A DNA stretch of 64,000 nucleotides from Bacteroidota bacterium (GTDB lineage: Bacteria > Bacteroidota > Bacteroidia > Bacteroidales > VadinHA17), in assembly GCA_037127735.1 (NCBI GenBank), contig JBAXXU010000007.1:1023-65022 (forward strand). The letters are read 5' to 3'. The notes beneath the pieces are model-generated. The model saw only the letters and a list, made by a program, of their open reading frames with translations, was not told the DNA's origin and made no database searches. Made by a program: the position numbers and the translations under genes. Within the stretch, counting starts at the first letter, position 1; each line of letters begins with the position of its first letter. Of the stretch, positions 1 to 64,000 are shown in pieces.

Positions 1-1187
1 CGGTTATTGTATTGACAGGTTTGGTGTTATTCAGTTTTTTTTCAAAGCTTGTATTCAAACAGGGAAAATCTATTTTATACGGGTTCATAATTTTTACAGT
101 TTTGTTTCCTCTGGTTTTTGTGGTTTATGAAAAATCAAACCTTTACAGTTCCTGGCGACAGTTTCTTTTTGTCTATCCCGGAATTGTTTTATTGGCAGCA
201 ATAGGATTTCATTATTTTTTCGAATTTGTAAAATTCAGGTTTATTAAATGGGTGGCAGTTGTAGTTTTGGCAATCTTATCTGTTCACCCGCTGAAGTTTA
301 TGATCAGTAATCATCCCTACTATTATTTGTATTATAACGAGTTTGTTGGCGGATTGAAAGGAGCTTATGCCAATTATGAAACGGATTATTATTATGTAAG
401 TCAGACACGGGCATCTGAATGGCTGATTGACTATTTTAAAGAGAAGAATATTCAATCTCCTGTAAAAGTTAAGGCAACATATTCAGTACAATGGCAGTTT
501 CGCGACCATCCTGAAATTAAGACATCATATTTCAGGTATGAGGAGAGAAGTCAGTCTGATTGGGATTATGCAATTGTTGCAAACAGGTATATCTCTCCTT
601 ATCAGTTAAAGAATAAAATATGGCCTCCCAAAAATGCCATACATATAATATATGCTGACCATGTCCCGGTTTGTGCAGTTCTTGAGAGAAAATCGAAAGA
701 TGATTTTTACGGTTATAATGCTTTAAATGAGGGCAGGAGCAAGGATGCAATAAAATTCTTTGAGAAGGTTTTGACGGTTGATGATAAGGATGAAATGATT
801 TTTTATAATTTTGCCGCAGCTTTATATAACGATCAACAGTACCAAAAGGCAGATTCGGTTTTAAAAAAGGGATTGGAGATAAATCCTGATTTCGAAATGA
901 TTTTGATGTACCTGGGAAATATTGCCAGGTACCAAAACAAAACAGATGAGGCAATTAAGTATTATGAAAGAGTTATTGAAACAAACAGGAAGTACTTTGA
1001 AGCTTATGTCGGTTTGTCGGGATTACTTATTGACAGCGATATAATGAGGGCCCACACTTTACTCCAAACTTGCCTGACAATGAGTCCGCGGTATAAGCCT
1101 GCAATAGTTGCACTGGCTGATACTTACAGGAAATCGGACCCCGGCGTTGCTAAGAAGTACGATGAACTGGGGAATAGTATTAAATAA
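1..1187 (+). CDS. polytopic membrane protein with C-terminal TPR repeats; 5' end lies outside the window (possibly the C-terminal part of a GT39/ArnT-like glycosyltransferase)
   Basis: The frame of tracked ORF 12..1187 stays open back to base 1. The first ~100 aa are hydrophobic helices. The last ~170 aa show TPR-like 34-aa periodicity (AIKFFEKVL, YQKADSVLKKGLEINP, EAIKYYERVIE). Confidence 0.5.
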   Translation, partial: VIVLTGLVLFSFFSKLVFKQGKSILYGFIIFTVLFPLVFVVYEKSNLYSSWRQFLFVYPGIVLLAAIGFHYFFEFVKFRFIKWVAVVVLAILSVHPLKFMISNHPYYYLYYNEFVGGLKGAYANYETDYYYVSQTRASEWLIDYFKEKNIQSPVKVKATYSVQWQFRDHPEIKTSYFRYEERSQSDWDYAIVANRYISPYQLKNKIWPPKNAIHIIYADHVPVCAVLERKSKDDFYGYNALNEGRSKDAIKFFEKVLTVDDKDEMIFYNFAAALYNDQQYQKADSVLKKGLEINPDFEMILMYLGNIARYQNKTDEAIKYYERVIETNRKYFEAYVGLSGLLIDSDIMRAHTLLQTCLTMSPRYKPAIVALADTYRKSDPGVAKKYDELGNSIK

Positions 1188-1194
1188 AAATAAT

Positions 1195-1461
1195 ATGTTA
1201 AAAATGAAAAAATCAGTTTTAGTGTTTTCGATGACAACCCTTCTTCTTCTTGGTGGAATGAATATTTCTATCGCACAAGAACAACCCAAGCCAAAGAAAG
1301 ATACAGTTAACATGGATACCGATGCAAAACCACAATTCTATTATGCTGTTGAGGATGAGAAAACAAAAGCCAAAGGATCCACTTCAACAATAGCTATAAT
1401 TGCAGGAGCTGTTGTAATAGTAGTGGCTGCAGGTTTCTTTCTTATCAAGAAGAAAAAGTAG
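1195..1461 (+). CDS. small secreted or membrane-anchored protein, unknown function
   Basis: Internal ATG at 1195 of ORF 1108..1461, just after the upstream stop. Signal-like MLKMKKSVLVFSMTTLLLLGG. C-terminal helix AIIAGAVVIVVAAGFFLI followed by KKKK. Confidence 0.45.
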   Translation: MLKMKKSVLVFSMTTLLLLGGMNISIAQEQPKPKKDTVNMDTDAKPQFYYAVEDEKTKAKGSTSTIAIIAGAVVIVVAAGFFLIKKKK

Positions 1462-1500
1462 TAAATGCAAGTTACATCAGCCTGTTAATTGGCTGTTATT

Positions 1501-2466
1501 ATGGACAAGATTAAAATATCGACTGCCCAGTTTGAGAACAGGAGCGGTGACAAGGACTACAATTTATCAAAAATTGAAAGTCTTGCCGGAAAGGCTGCCA
1601 TTGAAGGTTCTCATGCGATAGCTTTTCATGAATGTTCTGTTACAGGTTATACATTTGCCCGGCATCTTTCAAAAGAAAAGATGCTTGATCTTGCCGAGTT
1701 TATACCTGAGGGATCAAGTGTCAGAAGGTTGACTCATATAGCAGCGCAAAAACGTATCGCCATTCTGGCCGGACTTTTCGAGAAAGACCGAAATGATAAG
1801 ATATATAAGACTTATGTCTGTGTTGATAAAACCGGCTTAGTTGCAAAGTTCCGGAAACTTCACCCTTTTGTAAATGCATTTATTACGCCCGGTGACAGCT
1901 ATTGCGTATTCGATCTGTATGGTTGGAAATGTGGGATACTAATTTGTTATGATAACAATATTATTGAGAATGTACGCGCCACAGCCCTTCTGGGAGCCAA
2001 CATTATTTTCATGCCTCATGTAACAATGTGTACACCTTCAACACGGCCGGGTGCCGGATTTGTTGACCCGAAGTTATGGGAAAACAGAGAATCAGACCCG
2101 ACATCATTAAGGTTGGAATTTGATGGAATGAAGGGACGCGGCTGGTTATTGAAATGGCTTCCTTCCAGAGCCTATGACAATGGAATTTATGTAGTGTTTT
2201 CCAATCCTATAGGTATGGATGACAACCAGCTGAAGAATGGCTGTTCTATGATTATTGATCCGTTTGGCGACATTATTGCAGAATGTCGTACTCTTGGTAA
2301 TGACTATGTTTCAGCTACATTTACCCCGGAAAAACTTACACAATCAGGGGGATACAGGTATACAAAAGCCAGAAGGCCCGATCTTTATAAGAATATAATA
2401 GGAAGGCCACATATACCGGAACAAAAAGTTATATGGCTCGATTCTGATAAAGCCGGTAACTCATAG
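1501..2466 (+). CDS. carbon-nitrogen hydrolase (nitrilase superfamily)
   Basis: Glu-Lys-Cys triad contexts FHECSVTGY, FRKLHPF and GILICYD. First ATG of ORF 1489..2466 is at 1501. Confidence 0.8.
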   Translation: MDKIKISTAQFENRSGDKDYNLSKIESLAGKAAIEGSHAIAFHECSVTGYTFARHLSKEKMLDLAEFIPEGSSVRRLTHIAAQKRIAILAGLFEKDRNDKIYKTYVCVDKTGLVAKFRKLHPFVNAFITPGDSYCVFDLYGWKCGILICYDNNIIENVRATALLGANIIFMPHVTMCTPSTRPGAGFVDPKLWENRESDPTSLRLEFDGMKGRGWLLKWLPSRAYDNGIYVVFSNPIGMDDNQLKNGCSMIIDPFGDIIAECRTLGNDYVSATFTPEKLTQSGGYRYTKARRPDLYKNIIGRPHIPEQKVIWLDSDKAGNS

Positions 2467-2682
2467 TATATTTTTGTCTTGTAACTTTTGACTTTTATCT
2501 TAAGTATCTCAACCTTAACCTCAACCTCGACCTAAATTTGTCCTTTAACCTGTCGTCAGTCGCCTGCATCCATTGGTCAGGAAATCAGCATAACATATAT
2601 TAAAGCAAAAAGGAACATATTTCACAAATGCGTTTATACAGGTCGGATAATACTTTTATCTTTACTATTAAATATATCAGAA

Positions 2683-3888
2683 ATGTTAACAATAGATGAA
2701 ATTAAGGTTCTGATAAAAGATTTGGAATCTGACAGAGTAGAAAGAACCATTTCTTTCAGAGAAGATAAATTGGGTCCAATCGTATGTGTATTTTCAAATG
2801 ATTTCCCAAACCATAAAATGCCATGTTATATTTTGCTTGGAGTTAATGATGATGGAACAGTAAACGGTATGACAATAGGAGATACCGATTTACAAAAAAT
2901 TGGTGGCGTAAAATCAAATGGAAATGTGTTGCCTCAACCATCTTTAGTTGTAAGTCCCGTATTTAAAATTGACGGTGGAGATATTGTAGTTGTTGAAGTT
3001 CAGCCATCTCCATATCCGCCTGTTCGCTACGATGGCAGGTGTTGGATTCGAGTTGGACCAAGAAAAAGTAAAGCAACTCTTGAAGAGGAAAGAATGTTAT
3101 CCGAAAGGAGAAGTTCATTATCAAAAACTTTCGACAACCAGCCCTGTTTTGGTTCATCTCTTAGCGATTTGAATACCGATTTATTCAAAACATTCTATCT
3201 TCCAAAAGCAATTGATGCAGAAACACTGAATCAGAATAATCGTGACATAAAACAACAATTGGCTTCTTTACGTTTTTATGATTTGGTCCATGATTGTCCG
3301 ACCAATGCAGGTATCATATTATTTGCTGAAAGGCCAACATCTTATATACCCGGCGCATATATTCAGTATGTTAAAATTCCTTCCAAAGAGATAATACCGG
3401 GAATTGAATTTGAGAAAGAATTTAAGAAATGTCTTTGCCTCGATTTATTAAACATCGATGAATTCATTCAATCTGTGATTATCAAAAAAAGTTTAATTCA
3501 GAGATACAACAGCATGCAAGAGCAGATTATTTACAATTATCCTTTATGGTCTGTTCGGGAATTGATTTTCAATGCCATCATTCATCGTAACTATGAATCG
3601 AACGCACCTATTCTGATATATGAATTTACCGACAGGATAGAGATAAAAAACCCTGGTTATTTATTTGGGCAGGTTAATAAATACAATTTTCCAAACGTAA
3701 GTGATTATAGAAATATGGAAATTGCTGAGTCTCTCAAAACTCTGGGGTACATTAATAAATTTAATTTTGGAATAAAAACTGCAATCAAGTATTTGAGAGA
3801 TAATAATAACCCGGATCCGGTATTTGATTTATCATTAGTAACTGCTATGAAAGTTACTATATTGATCCGCAATAATTGGAAATATTGA
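2683..3888 (+). CDS. AlbA_2/Schlafen-like DNA-binding domain protein with C-terminal ATPase-like domain (often annotated as an ATP-binding protein or putative transcriptional regulator)
   Basis: N-terminal LESDRVERT...YILLGVNDDGTVNG pattern typical of AlbA_2 domains. C-terminal region contains NAIIHRNY. 401 aa. Confidence 0.55.
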   Translation: MLTIDEIKVLIKDLESDRVERTISFREDKLGPIVCVFSNDFPNHKMPCYILLGVNDDGTVNGMTIGDTDLQKIGGVKSNGNVLPQPSLVVSPVFKIDGGDIVVVEVQPSPYPPVRYDGRCWIRVGPRKSKATLEEERMLSERRSSLSKTFDNQPCFGSSLSDLNTDLFKTFYLPKAIDAETLNQNNRDIKQQLASLRFYDLVHDCPTNAGIILFAERPTSYIPGAYIQYVKIPSKEIIPGIEFEKEFKKCLCLDLLNIDEFIQSVIIKKSLIQRYNSMQEQIIYNYPLWSVRELIFNAIIHRNYESNAPILIYEFTDRIEIKNPGYLFGQVNKYNFPNVSDYRNMEIAESLKTLGYINKFNFGIKTAIKYLRDNNNPDPVFDLSLVTAMKVTILIRNNWKY

Positions 3889-4001
3889 TGATACTCCATT
3901 TTGACAGTAAGCAGGAATTTCATCTGGAGGCAGTAAAAGTCATCACTGATATTTTCGAAGGGCAGCCACTCAGCAGTGGCGACTTTGAATTTTCAATATG
4001 A
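3888..4001 (+). pseudogene. 37-codon remnant resembling the N-terminus of a type III restriction-like (COG3587) DEAD/DEAH helicase
   Basis: ATG overlaps the upstream stop (TGATG). Translation is MILHFDSKQEFHLEAVKVITDIFEGQPLSSGDFEFSI*, matching the remembered N-terminal pattern M.L.FD..Q..Q..A...V.D.F.GQP. The ORF then stops with nothing downstream. Confidence 0.35.
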
Positions 4002-4096
4002 TCGAAAATATTAAGAATGTTCAGAATAATAACGCCTGTTATGCAAGTATCCTTTTGCAGAGTTGAGCGCTGTTAACGAAAAACCCATAAAATGTT

Positions 4097-5467
4097 TTAA
4101 ATAGTATATGGCCTTCTTATTCCCCTGACAAATAATTTATTAGCTTCCTGATCGCCAACTACTTCGCCTTTTGCCGGATCCCAGGTTATTTTTCTGTTTG
4201 TACGTATTGTTATGTCACCCATGTGGCTGATAGAATCAGAAATAATCGCTTCATCAAGAGGGCAAAGTTCCTTCGATTTACCCTTAATCACATCCAGAAA
4301 GACCTGCCCCATTTTATTATTCTCGCTGTTAATCCAACCATCTTTGTTTTTCGGGAAATTATTAAGCTTCTTATTAATTTCAGGAATATTCGATTGCGCT
4401 GATGACCGGCTTAAAGAAATCCATCCTTTCGCACCAAAGAATGTTGTACCATTTTCTTCCTTCAACTGCCGATGATCAAGTACTCCTTTGGTTGCAATGT
4501 CTGTACTTACAAAATGTACCTCAAGCCCGTTTTTATATTTACAGGTAACATCCCAGGAAAGAATGTTATTGTACAAACCTCCCGGGGTCCAGAATTGACC
4601 TGTTCCTTCGCATGTATATGCTCCGGATACTTTATCTTTTAGTATCCACACGAGTATATCCAATGGATGGGCGCCCCAACCGGCAAGGAAACCGATACTG
4701 TAATCATTATTGAACCATGAACTATTATTGGTCACACGATCGGGACAATAGGGTCTCATCGGTGCGGGACCAGTCCATTTTTCAAAATCGAAATCGGGAG
4801 GAACAGGAACCTCATTACAAACCGGACTTTCGACAGGATTTTTACCCGGGGCCCATACTTCAACCCGCTCGATATCACCGATCAGTCCTTCCCTTATCAT
4901 GTTATAACCAAGCTGCATATGTTCTACTGTACGCTGCTGAGTGCCGTAATGAAAACGCACATTGTTGGCGGCCAGTTCTTTACCAAGTATTAGATATTCC
5001 GGATAGCTTAATCCGAGAGGTTTTGCCAGCATTATGTGTTTACCGGCACGCGCAGCCTTTATGGCCGCCGGAACATGCCAGTGATCGGGGGTTGTGATGT
5101 GAACCGCATCAATGTCTTTCCTCTGAAGTATCTCTTCAAAATCGAGGTAGGGGATACATTCCGGTACCGGATCGTTGTTGTCTTTATAGAACTTATTTAT
5201 TGTCATTGCAGCTTCTTCACGGCGGTATTTATGGACATCACACACCGCAATATTTACTGCTCCCCTCAGAGGTAATAAGTAATTCATTAGTTCCCATCCT
5301 CCTCTGTCGCCAACTCCAATGTGAGCGACTGAGATCCTGTCGCTTGCCCCTTTTCCGTTCGAGCACGATGGTAATATTGTTGGCAGCAAGGCCGCGCCGA
5401 TGATCCCTTTTACTGATTTTTGAACAAAACCCCTTCGGGAAATATTCTGTTTATTTTTCATATCCAT
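4097..5467 (-). CDS. Gfo/Idh/MocA-family oxidoreductase with twin-arginine export signal
   Basis: SRRGFVQKSVKGIIGAALLP TAT-like leader. Rossmann start ISVAHIGVGDRGG. HIMLAKPL (EKP-like) motif. Confidence 0.85.
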   Translation of the reverse strand: MDMKNKQNISRRGFVQKSVKGIIGAALLPTILPSCSNGKGASDRISVAHIGVGDRGGWELMNYLLPLRGAVNIAVCDVHKYRREEAAMTINKFYKDNNDPVPECIPYLDFEEILQRKDIDAVHITTPDHWHVPAAIKAARAGKHIMLAKPLGLSYPEYLILGKELAANNVRFHYGTQQRTVEHMQLGYNMIREGLIGDIERVEVWAPGKNPVESPVCNEVPVPPDFDFEKWTGPAPMRPYCPDRVTNNSSWFNNDYSIGFLAGWGAHPLDILVWILKDKVSGAYTCEGTGQFWTPGGLYNNILSWDVTCKYKNGLEVHFVSTDIATKGVLDHRQLKEENGTTFFGAKGWISLSRSSAQSNIPEINKKLNNFPKNKDGWINSENNKMGQVFLDVIKGKSKELCPLDEAIISDSISHMGDITIRTNRKITWDPAKGEVVGDQEANKLFVRGIRRPYTI

Positions 5468-5506
5468 GACAGTATTTTAGTAAAATGTTTTCCGGGTATG
5501 TTGATA

Positions 5507-7208
5507 TTAGTCATTCATATACTTATCATATTTTGCCTGTAAATCTTCTTTTCCGGTTTTGCCCGGCAATATCCAAACTCGATATTTCAAATGAAGAGCT
5601 TCACCTTTTTTTAATATAATCTTACCATCAAATAAAATAGCAGGACTATAATAAAAAAACGGGATTTCCGGATTATTGATCACATACCAACTTGTTGTCG
5701 GGGTAGTAAATTTCAGATTTTGTAAAATGCATACCCCTGCTTTTTCTCCGGTTAAGGTACTGAAACCCATATAAATCCAATTGTTTTTTTTATAATTTTC
5801 ACTTTCAGCAGGAGCAATGATTTCTGGTGAAGTAAAATCCTGATTGAACCGGATGGATAAACCTGCATAACCGCCCCACGACTGACCCTCTGGTTCGCCT
5901 TCAATGGGAGTACGGTCAAGAACTACTTCATCAATCAAAGGATTGAAAATGTTTTCATGATCAATAAAATAACTCCCATCGCTGAAGGGCGGAGAAATAT
6001 GGATATCTCTTTTTTCGGTCATAACGGCGTCACCACCTGCCGGGTGATATTGCAACTCCATCCGGATATCGGCAGAAAAATCAGGGCTCTTAACGATATC
6101 AATTTTTTGTAATTCAGTTATCCCGGCCGATTTGTAACCGTTTTTTTCAGATTTGTAATCATTCAGATATTCCCAGTAATTTACCCCATTGATAAATTTC
6201 CATGAAAACCACAGTCCAAGGTGCCATGGATGATCTGGAGGGCTGACACACGTAAGCGTTGAATTCTTTATAGTAACAGGATGGAAATAAGCATTGCCAA
6301 AACGGTTAGTGAAATTATATTGCCATAATATATCAGAATTGTTCATCAAACTTAAAGTTGTGTCGGATTGTTCCCACCGGAAATTATTGACTTCGGATGT
6401 TATTTTTTCTTTTAAACAGGTGGGTGTTTCGATTGTAACTTCCCTATTGGCTGTCCATTGTGTAGCTCTCAGGATGATTGTTTGCAAGCCGGTATTTAAA
6501 AGTGCTCTCTCATTGTGCCCAAGTGTAGTATAGAAGCAGCGGCCTTTCCCAAGTTGGTTTACAAAAACGGAGGTCTCGTTAATTAAATGGCCATCATTTT
6601 CATCCTTCCCGGTAAAGGAGGCAAGGGCCCTGGCGCCAGAGCAGATGTTGGTTCTTTCCCACAATTCATCAAAAATGTAAAAATCTCTGAGTCCTTTGGT
6701 TATGGGATGTTTTTGGTTAAATTCATATACCTTCCCTATTGTCTGCTTTCCATGATATGTTTTCCCCCCCCCATCTGCCAATACCTATTTGATGATAATC
6801 TTTCCAGGTATAGAATGAACAGGCACCGGCATGAATGGATATCACTCCACCACCCCGTTTAACATATTTCAGAAAATCATTTTCCCATTCTTTTGTCAGA
6901 CGAAAGGTACTGTCGGGCCAGTTATTCCAGTTGCTCACTACAACATCAAATTTTATCAATTCGTTGTATGGGAGTGTATCGGGCATTTCCGTTACTTTTA
7001 TTGTAAAAAGTCTGGAATCCTCATAAATCTTTACAAGTAAGGGAGTTGTTTTTTGCCACTCATGATTGTTCTTTCCGCTGAGGATTAGGACTTTAATTAA
7101 ACTGTCTTTTTTGCGATTCACACAACCGCAGATGACTGTGGTTGAGATTAAAACACAAATAATCTTCAGGATGAGGTTATTAGTCCTACTTTGACAGATT
7201 AAAATCAA
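5507..7208 (-). pseudogene. ThuA-domain / PmoA-family (DUF6807) fusion protein split by a +1 frameshift in a G9 run
   Basis: ORF 6723..7208 (lipoprotein-like leader, ThuA N-half) and ORF 5507..6781 (ThuA C-half ...GKGRCFYTTLGHN..., then the PmoA-like part) overlap at C9 6764..6772 (G9 on the coding strand). Removing one G gives ...IGIGRWGGKTYHGKQTIGKVYEF... Confidence 0.7.
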
Positions 7209-7356
7209 ACCAGGTTTTTCAGCTTTTTTACCCCGGCCCCCTTTGCTTCGCTGAAGCTTCGCGAAAGCGAAGAAGGGGTGAAAGCTGAAAAACCGGCCTG
7301 TTCCCCTTGGGGATGAAGGGTAAAAACAGGCCGGTTTTTCATATCTGTCAAAGTAG
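7186..7356. repeat. MITE/REP-like palindromic intergenic element, long copy
   Basis: 14-bp terminal inverted repeats CTACTTTGACAGAT (7186-7199) and ATCTGTCAAAGTAG (7343-7356). Nested internal hairpins (GGTTTTTCAGCTTT/AAAGCTGAAAAACC; CCCCTTTGCTTCGC/GCGAAAGCGAAGAAGGGG). The right ~75 bp is nearly identical to 11181..11250. Confidence 0.6.
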
Positions 7357-7435
7357 AATTAGTCCGCGCCATCAAATATATTTTTTTACTGATCCACAGT
7401 CTCAGTCACTCAGTTCCTAACACCTTCAGCTATTT

Positions 7436-8569
7436 CTATACTTTTACCCAGGTATTTCCTCCTTTATTAGAAGCAACTACTGAATGAATAAACTTCATTC
7501 CTCTCACACCATCATGAACGGTAGGAAATTCCCCTGAAGTAAATTTCTCTCCTCTTATTGATTTTGCTGTACCTTTATATATATTAGCAAGAGCTTCATA
7601 GATACCTTCAGGATGACCTGCCGGCATTGTATGACCGGCTTCGGCAAACTGATCATTGTATCCATGTGCCGGTTTAAATATTTTTGTCGGTTCGGTGTCA
7701 CTAAGCATGGTAAGGTAGTTAGGGTTTTCCTGGCCCCATTTGAGGCTTGCTTTTGATCCGTATACTGCAATTGTGAGGTTGTTTTCTTCTCCACCGCATA
7801 CCTGGCTCGCTCTTATCACTCCTTTGAGATTTTTGCTGAAACGCAATAAAACGGTTCCATCAAGATCAAGCTCAATATTCTCTTTTACAGGATTAAGATC
7901 AGAAAGTACCTCTTTTACCTCAAGCCCTGTAGTATATTCGATCAGATTAAAAGCATGAACTCCGATATCACCCATACAACTGCTGGCTCCCGCGTGTTTT
8001 GAATCAAGTCGCCAGACACCTGTTATCCTGCTGCCGGTACCATGAATGATTGAATTTATCCAGCCCTGATAATATTGTGCATCAATACGTTGGATGGTTC
8101 CAAGTTCTCCTTTTGCAATAATATCCCTCATCTGCCGGATCATAGGATATCCTGTATAGGTATGAGTCAACGCGAAGGTCAGATTTGTCTCATTAACCAG
8201 TTTTTCAAGTTCCTCTGCCTCTTCAACAGTTATCGTCATTGGCTTTTCACAAACCACGTGAAAGCCGGCAATAAGAAGACTTTTTGCAAAAAAATAATGG
8301 AGTGCATTGGGTGTTACTATGGCAACTACCTCCATCCGTTTTTCTGCTGGCATTGCTGATTCTGTTTTTATAAGAGCATCGACACTTTCATAGCATCTTT
8401 CAAGGGAGATCCCTTCATTTTTTGAGAACTGTTTGCTCTTTTCATAGTCTATATCAAAAACGCCTCCTACAAGCTCATAATCATTACATATTCTTGAAGC
8501 ACGGCGATGAGCATCTCCAATGAAAGCTCCTATACCACCGCCAATCATACCCATTCTTATCTTCTTCAT
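7436..8569 (-). CDS. Gfo/Idh/MocA-family oxidoreductase (cytoplasmic)
   Basis: MGMIGGGIGAFIG Rossmann start and VVCEKPM motif. 377 aa. Confidence 0.85.
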   Translation of the reverse strand: MKKIRMGMIGGGIGAFIGDAHRRASRICNDYELVGGVFDIDYEKSKQFSKNEGISLERCYESVDALIKTESAMPAEKRMEVVAIVTPNALHYFFAKSLLIAGFHVVCEKPMTITVEEAEELEKLVNETNLTFALTHTYTGYPMIRQMRDIIAKGELGTIQRIDAQYYQGWINSIIHGTGSRITGVWRLDSKHAGASSCMGDIGVHAFNLIEYTTGLEVKEVLSDLNPVKENIELDLDGTVLLRFSKNLKGVIRASQVCGGEENNLTIAVYGSKASLKWGQENPNYLTMLSDTEPTKIFKPAHGYNDQFAEAGHTMPAGHPEGIYEALANIYKGTAKSIRGEKFTSGEFPTVHDGVRGMKFIHSVVASNKGGNTWVKV

Positions 8570-42889: not shown

Positions 42890-42901
42890 ACTCTTTTACC
42901 G

Positions 42902-42945
42902 CGCCCTTCGCCCTTCACCCTCCGCCCCGGGCGAAAGGTTTTTTT
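42902..42945. terminator. hairpin plus T-run between convergent genes, with a stem built from heptamer units
   Basis: CGCCCTT CGCCCTT CACCCTC CGCCCCG, then GGGCGAAAGG pairing back onto CCCTTCGCCC, then TTTTTTT. Confidence 0.55.
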
Positions 42946-52787: not shown

Positions 52788-52826
52788 AGTGGGAGAAGGG
52801 GAGAGAGAGGGAATGGGAGAGTTGAA

Positions 52827-52868: not shown

Positions 52869-52950
52869 TAACCCAGCACCAATGTTAATAAATTAACACC
52901 AGATAATATATATCATATTTACTGTTTGATTTAACTTCTTTTATTTATAA

Positions 52951-53058
52951 ACTTTGTGAGCCTTTGTGTAACCCTTTGTGTAACCCTTTGTGCGACTTAG
53001 TGTTTAATATTTTTTTACCACGAAGGTACACAAAGTACATCACAAAGTAACACAAAGA
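52951..53058. repeat. CTTTGTG direct repeats mirrored by CACAAAG repeats (long imperfect palindrome)
   Basis: CTTTGTG at 52952, 52962, 52974 and 52986. CACAAAG at 53029, 53041 and 53051. AT/T-rich centre. Confidence 0.7.
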
Positions 53059-53124
53059 AAAAGAGCGCTTTAAGTATATTTGTGAATAATTCAGGTTAAA
53101 GAAATTTTAGAAATTTGTGGAAAG

Positions 53125-53520
53125 ATGAAGAAAAGTGATATTACCATACTTGTTGCTGATGATGATCCGGATTATCTTTTTCAGACAGTATTTAATCTCG
53201 GGAAGGCAGGTTACAAGACTGTGGCAGTAGAGAGCCAGGCAGAGGCAGAATCGGTAATTGCCCGTTTCAAACCTCACCTCGCAATATTCGACCTGATGAT
53301 GGAGAGCGACGACAGTGGATTTATATTATGTTACAAGATGAAAAGAAAATATCCTGATGTACCTGTAATTCTGGCAACTGCAGTATCGCACGAAACAGGA
53401 TTGTCTTTTAGTATTGATTCAGAACAGGAAAAGTCGTGGATCAGAGCCGACAGATATCTTGAAAAAGGTATCAGGCCCGAGCAGCTTGACCAGGAGGTTA
53501 TGAAACTGTTAAAACTTTAA
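53125..53520 (+). CDS. stand-alone response-regulator receiver domain
   Basis: ILVADDDPD ... AIFDLMM ... 131 aa, no output domain. Confidence 0.85.
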   Translation: MKKSDITILVADDDPDYLFQTVFNLGKAGYKTVAVESQAEAESVIARFKPHLAIFDLMMESDDSGFILCYKMKRKYPDVPVILATAVSHETGLSFSIDSEQEKSWIRADRYLEKGIRPEQLDQEVMKLLKL

Positions 53521-56302: not shown

Positions 56303-57727
56303 ATGAGGTTTACTCCTGAAAAACTGACCATCCCCGATCAACGGATGAAGCCATTCATTGATCCTGAAGAGATTTGGGGACTTATCAACAATACAAAGCC
56401 CGACAAACAGAGGGTGAGGGATGTCATTGCAAAATCGCTCGATAAACAAAGGCTCACGATGGAGGAGACTGCAGTTCTCGTGAATGTTGTCGGTACCGAC
56501 CTGGCTGATGAGATCAAACAGGGGGCCCGCGAACTGAAACAGAGAGTTTATGGTAACCGGATAGTGCTTTTTGCCCCGCTCTATGTAGGAAACAGGTGTA
56601 TAAATAACTGCAAATATTGCGGTTTCAGGACTTCAAATGCCGATGCTGTAAGGAAAACATTGAGCGACAATGAGATCATAAGCGAGGTGGAGGCACTGGA
56701 GGATAACGGACAAAAAAGGCTGATCCTTGTATATGGCGAACACCCCGATTACTCACCTGAATATATAGCCCATACAGTTAAGTTGGTGTATGGCGTCAAA
56801 AAGGGCCATGGCGAAATCAGAAGAGTAAATATCAATGCCGCACCACTCGACATTGAAGGTTTCAGAATTGTTGGCGAGTCAGGGATTGGCACCTACCAGG
56901 TCTTTCAGGAAACATACCACCCGGAGGCATATAAATGGTACCACCTGGGTGGGAAAAAGAAAGACTTTGAATGGCGACTGACATCGCTCGACAGAGCACA
57001 GGAAGCCGGAATTGATGATGTCGGAATCGGAGCCCTGTTCGGACTGTACGACTGGAGGTTTGAGGTACTGGGACTTGTTCGTCATACAAATCATCTTGAA
57101 GCATGTTATAATGTAGGCCCACATACTATATCTTTTCCGAGGATAAAAGATGCTGTAAGTCTGAACCTCGATAAGAAATTCGAGACAAGCGATGATGATT
57201 TTAAAAAACTTGTTGCTATCCTTCGTCTTGCTGTTCCATACACCGGATTGATCCTCACTGCACGTGAGACTCCCGATGTACGCCGGGAAGTATTGCAATT
57301 TGGTGTATCACAGATAGATGGTGGAACAAAACTTGAGCTTGGTTCTTATTCAGATTCAAAAAATGAAGAACAGAACCTTAACCGCGAGCAGTTTAAAATT
57401 AGCGATCCCCGTTCGCTGGCTGAAGTAATTGATGAGCTGCTCACGGACAATTATTTGCCATCATTTTGCACATCTTGCTACAGGATGGGACGCACCGGCG
57501 AACACTTCATGGAATTTTCAGTACCGGGTTTCATTAAAAGATTCTGCACACCCAATGCAATACTTACCCTTGCAGAATATATCTGCGACTATGGCCAGGG
57601 AGAGACTGTTAATAAGGGCTGGAAGGTAATTGTGAAGAACCTGGAAAAGCTCGAATCTGAAGTTGCCGTAAGTACCAGGGAAAAGATAGAAAGGATTAAG
57701 GCGGGGGAGAGAGACCTTTATTTTTGA
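56303..57727 (+). CDS. hydG: [FeFe]-hydrogenase H-cluster radical-SAM maturase HydG
   Basis: CINNCKYCGF (Cx3Cx2C) and the C-terminal auxiliary-cluster motif CTSCYRMGRTGEHFMEF...FCTPNA. Confidence 0.9.
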   Translation: MRFTPEKLTIPDQRMKPFIDPEEIWGLINNTKPDKQRVRDVIAKSLDKQRLTMEETAVLVNVVGTDLADEIKQGARELKQRVYGNRIVLFAPLYVGNRCINNCKYCGFRTSNADAVRKTLSDNEIISEVEALEDNGQKRLILVYGEHPDYSPEYIAHTVKLVYGVKKGHGEIRRVNINAAPLDIEGFRIVGESGIGTYQVFQETYHPEAYKWYHLGGKKKDFEWRLTSLDRAQEAGIDDVGIGALFGLYDWRFEVLGLVRHTNHLEACYNVGPHTISFPRIKDAVSLNLDKKFETSDDDFKKLVAILRLAVPYTGLILTARETPDVRREVLQFGVSQIDGGTKLELGSYSDSKNEEQNLNREQFKISDPRSLAEVIDELLTDNYLPSFCTSCYRMGRTGEHFMEFSVPGFIKRFCTPNAILTLAEYICDYGQGETVNKGWKVIVKNLEKLESEVAVSTREKIERIKAGERDLYF

Positions 57728-57825
57728 GGCGACAGGCGTAAGGCGTCAGGCGACAGTTTCAAATCCGAAATCCGAAATCCGAAATCCCCAGCCTGTAGCC
57801 CGTAGCCAGAGGCCTGTAGCCTTAT
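57728..57825 (+). repeat. 14-unit phase-locked heptanucleotide tract directly after the hydG stop
   Basis: GGCGACA GGCGTAA GGCGTCA GGCGACA GTTTCAA ATCCGAA x3 ATCCCCA GCCTGTA GCCCGTA GCCAGAG GCCTGTA, all in one 7-nt register. Confidence 0.9.
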
Positions 57826-57863
57826 TTTATGTTATAAAACAAATTATTCAATCTATAAGCATC

Positions 57864-58388
57864 ATGATAAAAGTACTTGGTATTAAAATTATCGACAGGA
57901 TAAAAGAAGCCGGTCTAACACAGGAGATATTGTCGCGGCATGCTACCGTAATAACTACCCGACTGGGTTTTCATGAAGTGACTGATTCAGTCTGCAGCCG
58001 TGAGGCATATATCATTCTTCATCTTAATGGCGATCCGGCTGATACAGATAGACTTTCATCAGCGCTGGAAGGGATTGGGGGTATTGAGATCCGCGGGATG
58101 TCCTTTCCTTCTGAAAAGGAAACCCTGAATTTAAAGACAGTTAATGGCAATGTGGAAATACTTGGTATTCTTGTTGAAAGAAACCACGATGTAATTGTTT
58201 TAGTTCAGAAAATCCTAACGGCTTATGGCTGTAATATCCGTACCCGTCTCGGTGTTAATGAGCTCTTCTTTGGCGAACCGGCAGGGCTGATCATTCTCGA
58301 ATTAAAGGGAGATGAAAAGCAGCGTCTTCTTCTTGAAAAGGAACTGAAGGGACTAAAACATGTGCATGTCAGGACGATGGTGTTTTAG
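57864..58388 (+). CDS. tandem-duplicated TM1266-type (iron-only hydrogenase system regulator, ACT/NikR-C-like) protein
   Basis: Two ~85-aa halves share a pattern: VLGIKIIDR...VITTRLGFHE...YIILHLNG versus ILGILVERN...NIRTRLGVNE...LIILELKG. Adjacent to hydG. Confidence 0.6.
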   Translation: MIKVLGIKIIDRIKEAGLTQEILSRHATVITTRLGFHEVTDSVCSREAYIILHLNGDPADTDRLSSALEGIGGIEIRGMSFPSEKETLNLKTVNGNVEILGILVERNHDVIVLVQKILTAYGCNIRTRLGVNELFFGEPAGLIILELKGDEKQRLLLEKELKGLKHVHVRTMVF

Positions 58389-58656: not shown

Positions 58657-59055
58657 ATGACTGATAATGTTGATATAGATAAAATTTATAATCATTGGAT
58701 TAGTACATCTGATAAGGATCTTATTACAATGGTTCATCTTTATGATTCAAAAGATTATCATTGGTCATTATTTATTGGTCATGCTGTTGTTGAACGATTA
58801 TTAAAAGCTTCCGTTGTAAAACGAATTTCAGATCATGCTCCTTTTACGCATGACTTAACCAAATTAGCAAAACTTTCCGGATTGTTATTTTCTGAAGAGC
58901 AATTAGATTGGCTGGATACAATTTCAACTTTCAATATTAATGCAAGATACGATAGCTATAAAGAGGCATTTTACAGAAAATGTACTTTAGAGTTCACAAC
59001 GGAATGGATTGATAAAGTTAAAATTCTACAATCATGGATAAAGGAGAAGCTCTAA
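58657..59055 (+). CDS. HEPN-domain protein (toxin-like partner of the MNT gene)
   Basis: 132 aa helical protein with the HAPFTHDL region expected around the HEPN active site. Overlaps the next gene by 22 nt. Confidence 0.65.
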   Translation: MTDNVDIDKIYNHWISTSDKDLITMVHLYDSKDYHWSLFIGHAVVERLLKASVVKRISDHAPFTHDLTKLAKLSGLLFSEEQLDWLDTISTFNINARYDSYKEAFYRKCTLEFTTEWIDKVKILQSWIKEKL

Positions 59056-59351
59056 GAATAGCAGGGGATTATATTGATTCAATAAGCACAAAATATAATA
59101 TCAGACAGGCAATATTGTTTGGTTCTTTTGCAAAAGGTACCAATCATGATGATAGTGATATAGATATAGCGATAATAATTAATAATGTAGTTGATATTAT
59201 TGATACCCAAATAGATTTAATGAAACTTCGCAGGACAATTGATTTAAGAATAGAGCCCCATCCTTTTATGATTGGGGACTTTAATCAGAGCAACCCTGTT
59301 GTAAATGAAATATTAAAATACGGAATAGTAATAAATAGTAACGTGTCCTGA
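59034..59351 (+). CDS. minimal nucleotidyltransferase (MNT) domain protein
   Basis: GSFAKGTNHDDSDIDIAI (GSxxxGx5-6SDxDxx). Confidence 0.75.
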   Translation: MDKGEALRIAGDYIDSISTKYNIRQAILFGSFAKGTNHDDSDIDIAIIINNVVDIIDTQIDLMKLRRTIDLRIEPHPFMIGDFNQSNPVVNEILKYGIVINSNVS

Positions 59352-59937: not shown

Positions 59938-60255
59938 ATGTTTAATATTATTGCCCGAAAAACATTATTGGATTATTGTAAAACATATCCTTTGGCAGCG
60001 CCGGGATTGCAAGAGTGGTATCATGAGATGGTTCAAAGCGACTTTAAAAACTTTAACAAGCTGAAAATGGTATATGGCACTGCAAGCCTGGTTGCCGACG
60101 ACAGGGTGGTATTTAATATAATGGGAAACAAGTACAGATTGGTGGTGAGGATTGTATTTCAATTCAGGGCCATACAGATAAAGTGGTTTGGCACTCATGC
60201 AGAGTATGATGAAGTAGATGTGACAAGTACAAATTTTAAAAAGAAGAAATCATGA
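59938..60255 (+). CDS. higB: type II toxin HigB (RelE-fold mRNA interferase)
   Basis: VVFNIMGNKYRLVVRI...IKWFGTHAEYDEVDV, the characteristic HigB_toxin pattern. Confidence 0.85.
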   Translation: MFNIIARKTLLDYCKTYPLAAPGLQEWYHEMVQSDFKNFNKLKMVYGTASLVADDRVVFNIMGNKYRLVVRIVFQFRAIQIKWFGTHAEYDEVDVTSTNFKKKKS

Positions 60256-60608
60256 ATTTAAAAATCATAGTATCTAAAAAAGAATATCAGCAATACCTTA
60301 CCTGGGCTGATGAAATGTTTGATAAGAGAATATCACCGGAAACAGCTGAAGGAGAAAAGCTAAAGGTTGTGCTGTTATTAATTAAACAATATGAAGATCA
60401 GCACTATCCTGTTCCAAAACCAGATCCCATTGATGCCATAAAAAATAAAATGGTTGATTTAGGGCTTAAAAACAAATATTTTGTGGGTAAAGTAGGTTCT
60501 AAAGGATATGTATCGGCTATTTTGAATAAACGCAAACCACTTACGCTTCATCTTGCCAGGTTGTTTCATAATGAATTAGGAATCCCGGCTGATGTTTTAT
60601 TGTCATAG
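60252..60608 (+). CDS. higA: HigA-type HTH antitoxin
   Basis: 4-nt overlap with higB. ...YEDQHYPVPKPDPIDAIKNKM...ILNKRKPLTLHLARLFHNELGIPADVLL. Confidence 0.8.
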   Translation: MNLKIIVSKKEYQQYLTWADEMFDKRISPETAEGEKLKVVLLLIKQYEDQHYPVPKPDPIDAIKNKMVDLGLKNKYFVGKVGSKGYVSAILNKRKPLTLHLARLFHNELGIPADVLLS

Positions 60609-60624
60609 GATTTAAACTGTTTAA

Positions 60625-60750
60625 GACAAAAGACAAAAGACAAAAGACAAAAGACAAAAGACAAAAGACAAAAGACAAAAGTCACAAGAAAAAAGTAAAA
60701 ATGCAAAATGCAAAATGCGAAACGCGAAACGCGATACGCTGAACGCTGAA
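60625..60750 (+). repeat. 18-unit phase-locked heptanucleotide tract with stepwise unit drift
   Basis: GACAAAA x8, GTCACAA, GAAAAAA, GTAAAAA, TGCAAAA x2, TGCGAAA, CGCGAAA, CGCGATA, CGCTGAA x2. The register is unbroken. Confidence 0.92.
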
Positions 60751-60784
60751 CTCTTAGACCAAAAAGCTCCTTCAAATCGAAGAC

Positions 60785-63384: not shown

Positions 63385-64000
63385 ATGGCACGACCACCTT
63401 CTACTAAAAGCGCGACCAAGCCTGTGGGCAAAGTAAGGAAAAAAGCACAAAAGAAACCACCCATAATATTGCCTCCTGTCATTGTAAAAACAAATTATTT
63501 TCAAAAGAAATATTTATATGGAGTTTCAGCCGTAGTACTGTTAATCGTATTCATCTTATTAATTCGCTTTTGTAATAAAGAAAAGCCGGCGCTACCGGTT
63601 CTGAAAACACAAGCTGTGACTGAAATTTTGTCTGAAACAGCTGCTTCAGGAGGCGATATAACAAGCAATGGCGGAGCGCCCGTAGTTTCAAGAGGCGTCT
63701 GCTGGAATACATCGGCCAGCCCGACTGTCGCGAACAATAAGACAGTTGATAGTGTTGGATCAGGCCCTTTTATCAGCCTGATTACCGGACTTACCCCAAA
63801 TACCATATATTTAGTAAGAGCCTATGCTACAAATAGCGCCGGTACAAGTTATGGCAATCAGGTACTATTTACTACCGGCAAGAGTGTAGTTCCTGATCTG
63901 ACACAGAAAACAACCGGTAAGGCTGAAGTTCCTGATCTGACACAGAAAACAACCGGTAAGGGTGAAGTTCCTGTTTTGACACAGAAAACAACCGGTAAGG
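63385..64000 (+). CDS. N-terminally anchored surface protein with an Fn3-like domain and 13-aa tandem repeats; 3' end outside the window (absent from the ORF track)
   Basis: ATG at 63385 with no stop through base 64000 (205 codons). Basic tail MARPPSTKSATKPVGKVRKKAQKK, TM helix YLYGVSAVVLLIVFILLIRF, and the domain ITSNGGAPVVSRGVCWNTSASPT...IYLVRAYATNSAGTSYGNQVLFTT. Repeats VPDLTQKTTGK[AG]E follow. Confidence 0.7.
   Translation, partial: MARPPSTKSATKPVGKVRKKAQKKPPIILPPVIVKTNYFQKKYLYGVSAVVLLIVFILLIRFCNKEKPALPVLKTQAVTEILSETAASGGDITSNGGAPVVSRGVCWNTSASPTVANNKTVDSVGSGPFISLITGLTPNTIYLVRAYATNSAGTSYGNQVLFTTGKSVVPDLTQKTTGKAEVPDLTQKTTGKGEVPVLTQKTTGK
63889..64000 (+). repeat. 39-bp coding tandem repeat, at least 2.8 copies, running off the window
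   Basis: GTTCCTGATCTGACACAGAAAACAACCGGTAAGGCTGAA starts at 63889, 63928 and 63967, with 2-4 substitutions per copy. Confidence 0.9.

Follow-up and report, generated by a model that had tools for sequence, protein, structure and literature searches.

A compound heptamer repeat after hydG in a freshwater Bacteroidales lineage, probably an STRR-like quasi-palindrome that arose by slippage

The 7-bp tandem repeats of cyanobacteria known as STRR are built from the words CCCCAGT, TTGGTCA and CAACAGT. They form hairpins between hupS and hupL (Nostoc/Anabaena) and near gene 3′ ends, and have been proposed to act in transcript stability, termination or translational coupling (PMC2670836). The heptamer repeats of Xanthomonas and Nostoc (GGGAATC and GGGGAYT) mostly comprise about four units, are intergenic in 89–93% of cases, have mean distances of 28 nt to the upstream ORF and 160 nt to the downstream ORF, and overlap stop codons; each genome holds 70–75 convergent (plus/minus strand) pairs capable of forming stem-loops, and sister species do not keep the repeats at corresponding genes (Rehm et al. 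2015, PMC4692102). Direct repeats of TAACTGA and other heptamers occur in Beggiatoaceae, Cyanobacteria and some Bacteroidetes; in Gramella, Aequorivita and Elizabethkingia, one spacer carries 'larger assemblages' of several heptamer repeats, and the spacers of close relatives are shorter and free of repeats (MacGregor 2015, PMC4679880). As cited in these two papers (PMC4679880 and PMC4692102), Mrazek, Guo and Shah (2007) found heptanucleotides to be the commonest class of long simple sequence repeats (SSRs) in many prokaryotic genomes, and are credited in PMC4679880 with proposing a 7-nt polymerase-contact length that favours slippage.

We analysed 64 kb of DNA from a freshwater Bacteroidales lineage (hereafter the window, meaning the whole stretch), in which a repeat element lies between the stop codon of hydG (TGA, 57725–57727) and the leader, approximately 40 nt (38 nt), of a regulator gene. 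The regulator gene is co-directional with and downstream of hydG in all close relatives (synteny, L001–L022), and the genes around the element encode Rex, RibF, HydG, the regulator and TA modules (Pfam/NCBIfam annotation); rpoB and rpoC also lie in the window. The features of the locus are as follows.

56303–57727, + strand: hydG, [FeFe]-hydrogenase radical-SAM maturase (NCBIfam TIGR03955, 479 bits versus a cutoff of 312; Pfam Radical_SAM and BATS)
57728–57755, + strand: 5′ arm, four heptamers GGCGACA GGCGTAA GGCGTCA GGCGACA (GGCGNNA ×4; TRF 57734–57752)
57756–57762, + strand: junction heptamer GTTTCAA (lag-7 match string; Hamming distances of 5 and 4 to its neighbours)
57761–57787, + strand: loop array (AAATCCG)3.9, which reads as ATCCGAA ×3 plus ATCC in the frame of the original prediction (TRF, 100% matches)
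57790–57822, + strand: 3′ arm GCCTGTA GCCCGTA GCCAGAG GCCTGTA GCC (TGTAGCC-type ×4.6; inverted-repeat search)
57809–57833, + strand: terminator-like stem-loop GAGGC-CTGTA-GCCTT followed by T-rich ATTTTATGTT (57824–57833; consensus scan)
57864–58388, + strand: CPF_0552 family/TM1266-like iron-only hydrogenase regulator (NCBIfam NF052672, 130 bits; Pfam PF21699)

The 98 nt directly after the hydG stop can be read as 14 consecutive 7-mers from 57728, exactly as the original prediction listed them: GGCGACA GGCGTAA GGCGTCA GGCGACA GTTTCAA ATCCGAA ATCCGAA, then ATCCGAA ATCCCCA GCCTGTA GCCCGTA GCCAGAG GCCTGTA, so that three ATCCGAA and ATCCCCA are followed by a last family of four GCC words and then by GCCTTAT. 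The 7-nt periodicity far exceeds chance. Self-identity at lag 7 was 61/91, compared with 13–30% at other lags; none of 20,000 shuffles reached 61 matches (maximum, 42), and at least 50/91 matches were found in only three regions of the 64-kb window. TRF called three period-7 arrays at the locus, and the periodicity of the first starts at A57727, inside the stop codon. The locus is thus a real compound heptamer repeat that departs strongly from randomness. Coding repeats were rejected as a candidate class, as were CRISPR and G-quadruplex repeats on unit size and G/C runs: the units are 7 nt long and contiguous rather than repeats of at least about 23 nt with unique spacers, and GGCGACA, ATCCGAA and GCCTGTA hold at most GG or one CCC(C), whereas a G-quadruplex requires a minimum of four short-looped runs of three or more G (or C). 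Rfam returned no hit to the element; the sole match was a sub-threshold chance match inside hydG (Ocean-VII, 14 bits versus a gathering score of 53.5).

The 14 words had been described as four unrelated families, and this description does not hold. GTTTCAA occurs once and constitutes no family; it is a junction chimera with its G from the first array, a non-periodic TTTC and its AA from the loop array. The outer arrays, far from being unrelated, are imperfect reverse complements of one another: the reverse complement of GGCGACA is TGTCGCC, which TGTAGCC (GCCTGTA rotated) matches for pairing at 6/7 positions, and the inverted arms (57727–57756 and 57793–57822) are 30 nt long, 73% complementary and 36 nt apart, with about six paired bases and one mismatch per unit. 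This inverted-repeat relation, which the original prediction had missed, organizes the locus.

With at least three tandem copies, a stop-adjacent intergenic site, many dispersed arrays and convergent pairs, the locus shares these features with heptanucleotide SSRs and STRR. Like the cyanobacterial STRR (PMC2670836), it consists of 7-bp tandem units in an intergenic or intercistronic position near a gene 3′ end, is capable of forming a hairpin and belongs to many dispersed arrays per genome. It differs in its host (a freshwater Bacteroidales rather than a filamentous cyanobacterium), in its words (GGCGACA, ATCCGAA and TGTAGCC) and in a third array that fills the loop. All of the features given above for the Xanthomonas and Nostoc repeats (unit number, intergenic location, proximity to stops, convergent pairs and poor conservation) match the present data; those genomes, however, each have one dominant word that is capable of forming G-quadruplexes, whereas many words are present here, without G3 runs or G-quadruplex potential. 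The TAACTGA system shares intergenic heptamer arrays, and its assemblages correspond to the concatenation that was first noticed at hydG, but TAACTGA arrays are mostly forward-oriented and located immediately before start codons, whereas the arrays here abut stops and are paired in inverted orientation. The locus is therefore an ordinary member of a known STRR-like class, now found in a freshwater Bacteroidales lineage; the adjacency of heptamer arrays to stop codons and their convergent pairing are both already published.

The sense RNA folds as one long hairpin (−35.3 kcal/mol, z = −3.3; 0/200 dinucleotide shuffles were as stable), with the (ATCCGAA)4 array in the hairpin loop of both the minimum free energy (MFE) and centroid structures and UUAUUUUAU following the hairpin. 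The long stem starts at the UGA stop of hydG, whose three bases are the first to pair (UGAGGC with GCCUUA in the MFE structure), and is followed by TTATTTTAT. The long stem and the small terminal stem-loop end at one point, and the terminator-like site at 57809–57823 plus ATTTTATGTT was the sole one called in 57500–58000. The sequence signature of a Rho-independent terminator is present downstream of the gene on the sense strand, as a GC-rich stem-loop with a U-rich tract right behind it; the loop of the long hairpin, however, measures 36 nt, and mismatches recur periodically in its stem.

Among relatives, the length of the hydG spacer ranged from 10 to 171 nt. A hairpin with GGC-initiated arms was found at the hydG spacer of the window and of loci L013, L021, L015, L017, L342 and L327, and an arm-loop-arm architecture with differing loops was found at the orthologous spacers of L021, L015, L013, L342, L327 and L321. 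The loop array of the window was not present in the orthologous hairpins L021, L015 and L013. In L321, remnants of the arms enclose (CGGTATT)13, which makes it a second lineage with a loop colonized by another heptamer. Other words in the hydG spacers of relatives include CGCTGGA, GGTGCTT, GTCGGAA and the period-8 GGCACAAT; words turn over between close relatives and unit numbers differ between species at this one spacer. The design also recurs elsewhere: (GTTGCTG)6-(AAGACCG)13-(AGCACCC)3 occupies L013 630–850, and similar elements lie at L015 5825–5925 and L008 605–675 (hairpin z-scores from −6.3 to −6.8 at the three sites).

These observations bear on whether the hairpin and U-tract are a selected RNA element (an intrinsic terminator, an attenuator or a stabilizing stem-loop on the hydG mRNA), the periodicity being incidental to the lengthening of the stem. 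Such an element would be consistent with a stem that runs from the stop codon to TTATTTTAT, with the single terminator-like site at 57809–57833, with fold z-scores of −2.8 to −7.0 for the orthologous hairpins, with arms kept in at least six lineages despite wholly different loops, with T-rich sequence behind the 3′ arm in L013, L015, L021 and L342, and with the transcript stabilization or termination proposed for cyanobacterial STRR hairpins (PMC2670836). However, the antisense RNA folds better than the sense RNA by 5–16 kcal/mol in 4/4 orthologous hairpins, which argues against strong selection on a sense-strand RNA structure. Many relatives have a hydG spacer of 10–55 nt with neither array nor hairpin, indicating that the element is dispensable, and L344 has a pyrimidine-rich array alone that does not fold. 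No Bacteroidetes-type promoter motif was seen in the 38 nt before the regulator gene, so full termination would silence that gene, and a 36-nt loop is atypical of intrinsic terminators. The antisense fold and the many relatives without the element thus count against a strongly selected sense-RNA structure. We consider a selected RNA element possible but doubtful as the explanation of the locus.

Imperfect palindromes just after stop codons are familiar from Escherichia coli, in which REP/BIME elements lie inside operons and act as mRNA stabilizers or partial terminators. REPs form a conserved, dispersed sequence family that is mobilized by RAYT and is not internally periodic. The hydG locus resembles them as an imperfect post-stop palindrome but differs in having no dispersed copies in the 64-kb window. 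Insertion, in either orientation, of a REP/BIME- or MITE-like mobile quasi-palindrome at the hydG stop codon would fit the presence or absence of the element among relatives and the scattering of GGCG-arm hairpins in the HydG tree, an identical junction of the stop codon with GGCGACAGGC in the window, L013 and L021, arms in L342 that are exact complements of the opposite arms of the window, as if flipped, and a nested palindrome in the loop of L013. Within the 64-kb window, however, neither the element nor its arms have a second copy: the exact match to GGCGNNAGGCG was the locus itself only, one-mismatch matches were at chance level, and the arm and loop words form no other arrays. A dispersed REP/MITE family within the window was rejected as a candidate in the absence of further copies. 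Nor is there a conserved core or a transposase among the neighbouring genes, and an informal look noticed no flanking direct duplication; unit numbers and words vary continuously, and the same architecture is built from arrays of unrelated words. Insertion of a mobile element is very unlikely.

Arrays of this type are common around the locus and beyond it. Approximately 11 period-7 sites are present in the 64-kb window, nearly all in spacers directly after genes. In 926 kb of Bacteroidales relatives, 28 strict arrays had lag 7 and 14 had lag 8, with at most 2 for any other lag (0 in shuffled sequence). In this Bacteroidales set, 54 arrays were intergenic and 2 genic; within co-directional spacers, 18/20 arrays were closer to the upstream stop than to the downstream start (P = 4 × 10−4), and nine were no more than 10 nt from the stop. 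GTDB searches with the patterns of four GGCGNNA units and (ATCCGAA)3.5 each returned at least 120 matches in genomes of many phyla, ATCCGAA being present as arrays in at least 120 genomes. Among the matches listed, we took a wider sample of 239 loci from many phyla (1.66 Mb). Of the unselected arrays at these 239 listed loci, which represent 124 word classes, 211/337 had a period of 7, as opposed to 40 at lag 8, 20 at lag 9 and 12 at lag 6. Inverted pairing is also widespread at the listed loci: 97/384 neighbouring array pairs were inverted at 6/7 positions or better (chance, approximately 1%), and 178/659 arrays had an inverted partner at a median gap of 55 nt. Arm lengths in inverted pairs were uncorrelated (Spearman 0.06) in this sample, which the search patterns bias towards arrays of about four units. 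The purine-rich arm came first in 54 versus 31 cases at the listed loci, a count that is uninformative without gene orientation given that the palindrome is identical on both strands.

The diversity of words also bears on the possibility of a binding-site array, in which every heptamer would be recognized by a protein that binds single-stranded RNA or DNA (with a Csp/S1-like OB fold or something similar) and the whole would serve as a post-transcriptional regulatory platform at the gene 3′ end. The arrays lie on the sense strand directly after stops, the first array is usually purine-rich, the words ATCCGAA and GGCGNNA recur in very many phyla, and CspB binding of one heptamer per monomer, with a regulatory role, has been proposed for TAACTGA repeats (PMC4679880). 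Yet at least ten words occur as arrays in the 64-kb window and 124 classes in the wider listed sample, which is incompatible with one sequence-specific binder; words are replaced between close relatives at a single spacer, and arms that pair with each other would not be free for a single-strand binder. We regard a binding-site array as quite unlikely.

The feature that first drew attention to the locus was its single register: heptamers of different families stay in frame with each other. This is uninformative, because any abutting period-7 arrays can be parsed into one 7-nt frame with one chimeric unit per junction, and register is informative only for words that have anchor positions in common. 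Self-match boundaries place the array starts at 57727, 57761 and 57790, at offsets (34 and 29) that are not multiples of 7. The units do have columns in common (13/14 have C at their third position, C3, and 12/14 have A at their seventh, A7), but 3/49 relative rotations of the three consensus words equal the shared columns (P ≈ 0.06), a test of register based on the similarity of adjacent pairs gave P ≈ 0.27, and Hamming distances at the family changes (5, 4 and 5) are near the random expectation of 5.25. The G1 and C3 common to the first and fourth families follow from a palindromic GNC and this particular loop length.

We surveyed junctions between adjacent period-7 arrays in 2.6 Mb, comprising the window, 80 Bacteroidales hydG loci and the 239 listed loci from many phyla. 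At the 86 junctions found in this survey, the in-frame offset was the best match at 50 (12 expected), with a mean rank of 2.0 versus a null of 4.0. The words at these 50/86 in-register junctions differ by 1–3 bases; they are mutated units that were re-amplified in place, as in the nearby array 60623–60755, in which units drift stepwise in register. Truly unrelated words had a mean in-frame rank of 3.5 versus 4.0 (n = 7), and the same word was joined to itself out of register at 8/86 junctions. The expectation that junctions lie in register more often than chance is thus borne out for related words and not for unrelated ones, and there is no evidence among the junctions surveyed for register between unrelated words. 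Same-word arrays 21–60 nt apart at the listed loci kept register in 13/22 cases (P = 1 × 10−6), and those 61–300 nt apart in 10/52, no more than chance. Gaps between complementary arms, taken modulo 7 over 79 pairs at the listed loci, were uniform (8, 12, 17, 6, 15, 12 and 9), and the arm phases of the orthologous hydG hairpins were 3 (window), 5 (L021), 6 (L015) and 6 (L013).

It had been argued that independent slippage would not preserve register across different words, and that the period itself, rather than the sequence, is generated or selected. The first argument overlooks that slippage within an existing array always changes its length by whole units, so that mutating units necessarily stay in register. 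For the second, the 7-nt period rather than the word is indeed the invariant, but the support drawn from register falls away; recurrence of the period rather than the word is correct and already published, Mrazek et al. (2007) being, as that work is represented in the later papers, its survey-level form without junction-phase or hairpin analysis. A dedicated, sequence-independent generator working in 7-nt quanta, with the period as its product or as the target of selection, would account for the dominance of period 7 over at least 124 word classes in many phyla, for same-word arrays in register across gaps of 21–60 nt and for the C3 and A7 columns. It would not explain the loss of register beyond 60 nt, the same word rejoined out of frame, the uniform gaps between complementary arms, the differing orthologous phases or the period-8 arrays that occupy the identical post-stop position in some relatives, and register between unrelated words is undefined in the first place (rotation test, P = 0.06–0.27) and their junctions are close to the null. 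The shared G1/C3 has its own cause, and all of the observations are predicted by ordinary whole-unit slippage. We consider such a generator improbable. Whole-unit slippage in a mutating array explains every case of kept register, and the single register at the hydG locus is whole-unit slippage plus free parsing, with no separate phenomenon.

Database searches provided views of strain variation and of the assembly. An exact search for the array in GTDB and an exact search for the hydG 3′ end in JGI metagenomes each gave 0 matches, and among metagenome contigs searched with HydG the best match had 92% identity, with no conspecific. Three metatranscriptomes of the source samples yielded no hydG sequence, the matches being (ATCCGAA)n contigs of other organisms only. 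Logan contigs showed no indels at the array, at low depth, and break there: they end inside the array, where the depth of the ATCCGAA word is 1,000–8,000 compared with 3–9 for the flanks, as would be expected if contigs had been joined through the abundant (ATCCGAA)n into a chimeric spacer. However, a contig of run X3 covers 57500–57809 and one of run X1 covers 57760–58100 with zero differences, overlapping by 50 nt that include unique 3′-arm sequence; the array, at 27 nt, is shorter than k = 31; the order from hydG to the TM1266-like gene is conserved in relatives; and the two arms that flank the supposed join can pair with each other. On these observations an assembly chimera is unlikely, and a false join through the array is extremely improbable as an account of the locus.

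We think it probable that the locus is an STRR-like compound heptanucleotide SSR in the form of a quasi-palindrome, for which we propose a slippage origin and an intercistronic stem-loop role. An ancestral GGC-rich post-stop hairpin would have been present in this Bacteroidales clade. Replication slippage, for which 7 nt is a favoured length in many bacteria, would gain and lose whole 7-nt units, and point mutations in units followed by re-amplification would yield new words with the frame unchanged; we infer this origin of the arrays from their sequences. Selection acting on the hairpin or intrastrand template switching, or the two together, may keep the arms complementary, and the loop array would have arisen later, in this lineage alone. 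On a hydG–regulator co-transcript, the hairpin would act as an intercistronic stem-loop, serving as a partial terminator or as an RNA-stability or processing element. Judging from the predicted folds, this is its most likely role, and it may equally be a tolerated by-product.

A broader version of this proposal is that the period-7 arrays of many phyla come from a common, sequence-independent slippage quantum, with post-stop hairpins as nucleation sites at which arms and loops turn periodic; one candidate for the quantum is a 7-nt contact or translocation step made by a replicase or repair polymerase stalled at hairpins near gene 3′ ends. This idea is speculative, and we judge it unlikely.

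The hydG locus is a clean example of its class and offers no new handle on the bacterial preference for 7 nt. Because contigs end inside them, heptamer arrays break short-read assemblies, and they can pass for exotic signals. Uncultured Bacteroidales from fresh water and sediment also commonly show the STRR-like syndrome that had been described for cyanobacteria and Xanthomonas. Its four features are arrays hugging stops, convergent pairing, rapid turnover and freedom of the words, and arrays of the same two words are present in many phyla. If the common slippage quantum were real, the hydG locus (in which both arms and loop are periodic), L321 and L013 would be snapshots of the process, and the 7-nt preference would be experimentally tractable in Bacteroidales.

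The antisense RNA fold was more stable than the sense fold by 5–16 kcal/mol in all four orthologous hairpins (57725–57825 in the window, and 3004–3084, 5208–5275 and 2301–2438 in the compared loci L021, L015 and L013, respectively), because the arm mismatches are A·C in sense and G·U in antisense. Possible explanations are that mutation is biased or that a strong sense-strand terminator is avoided. In a metagenome relative whose HydG is 83% identical (locus L342, 1574–1670), the arms read GGCTACA.../...TGTCGCC, with units that are exact complements of the 3′-arm and 5′-arm units of the window; judged from these sequences, the quasi-palindrome looks as if it had been flipped relative to hydG. 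The same spacer in a second relative (90% identical HydG; locus L321, 1675–1835) carries (CGGTATT)13 flanked by the arm remnants GCATCAGGTG and CGCCTGATAC, and is an independent instance in which a different heptamer has expanded within the hairpin loop.

The (AAATCCG)n word of the window (57752–57793; runs X1–X4 and X16–X18) reached depths of 1000–8000, compared with 3–9 for its flanks, in four freshwater metagenomes. It also occurred in metatranscriptome contigs that run on into GC-rich sequence from other organisms. Arrays of this word were present in at least 120 GTDB genomes from many phyla, and the Acidobacteria MAG SZAS-13 holds many copies in one genome.

Shortly after the hydrogenase genes come two toxin–antitoxin-like pairs, each of which is in turn followed by heptamer arrays:
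58657–59055 and 59034–59351, HEPN gene and nucleotidyltransferase gene
59938–60255 and 60252–60608, HigB-like toxin gene and partner ORF

The array at 60623–60755 starts with (AAGACAA)8 and continues in the same frame through AAGTCAC, AAGAAAA, AAGTAAA, AATGCAA (twice), AATGCGA, AACGCGA (twice), TACGCTG and AACGCTG. With 1–3 substitutions per step and a retained AA prefix, it is a textbook example of in-register re-amplification of mutated units.

Elsewhere in the window, between convergent genes (42897–42945), the units CGCCCTT, CGCCCTT and CACCCTC lead into CGCCCCGGGCGAAAGG and then T7; here, a heptamer array merges into a compact terminator-like hairpin. A longer repeat, which presumably encodes a 13-residue protein repeat, lies within an ORF extending past the window end:
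63874–64000, 39-nt tandem repeat, 3.3 copies, 92% matches

Purine-rich tracts of irregular GGAG/GAGA sequence, such as AGTGGGAGAAGGGGAGAGAGAGGGAATGGGAGAG, stand directly 3′ of stop codons, and in some cases heptamer arrays come next. Shine–Dalgarno-dependent initiation is largely absent from the host phylum. The tracts are located as follows:
52788–52825 of the window
post-hydG spacers of loci L001, L002, L323, L328 and L336

Period 8 was the second commonest class, with 14 strict arrays versus 28 for period 7. In some relatives, period-8 arrays (TTCAACCC, GGCACAAT and GGCGCAAA) occupy the same post-stop positions:
L009, 3941–4054 and 7935–7957
L017, 9037–9069
L330, L322 and L325, hydG spacers

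At 52950–53070 of the window, a period-12 array (CCTTTGTGTAAC, 2.7 copies) has an inverted partner 35 nt downstream (ACACAAAGTAC, 2.7 copies). The pair, upstream of a response-regulator gene at 53125, forms a predicted hairpin of −36.6 kcal/mol, and the arm–loop–arm design therefore extends beyond period 7.
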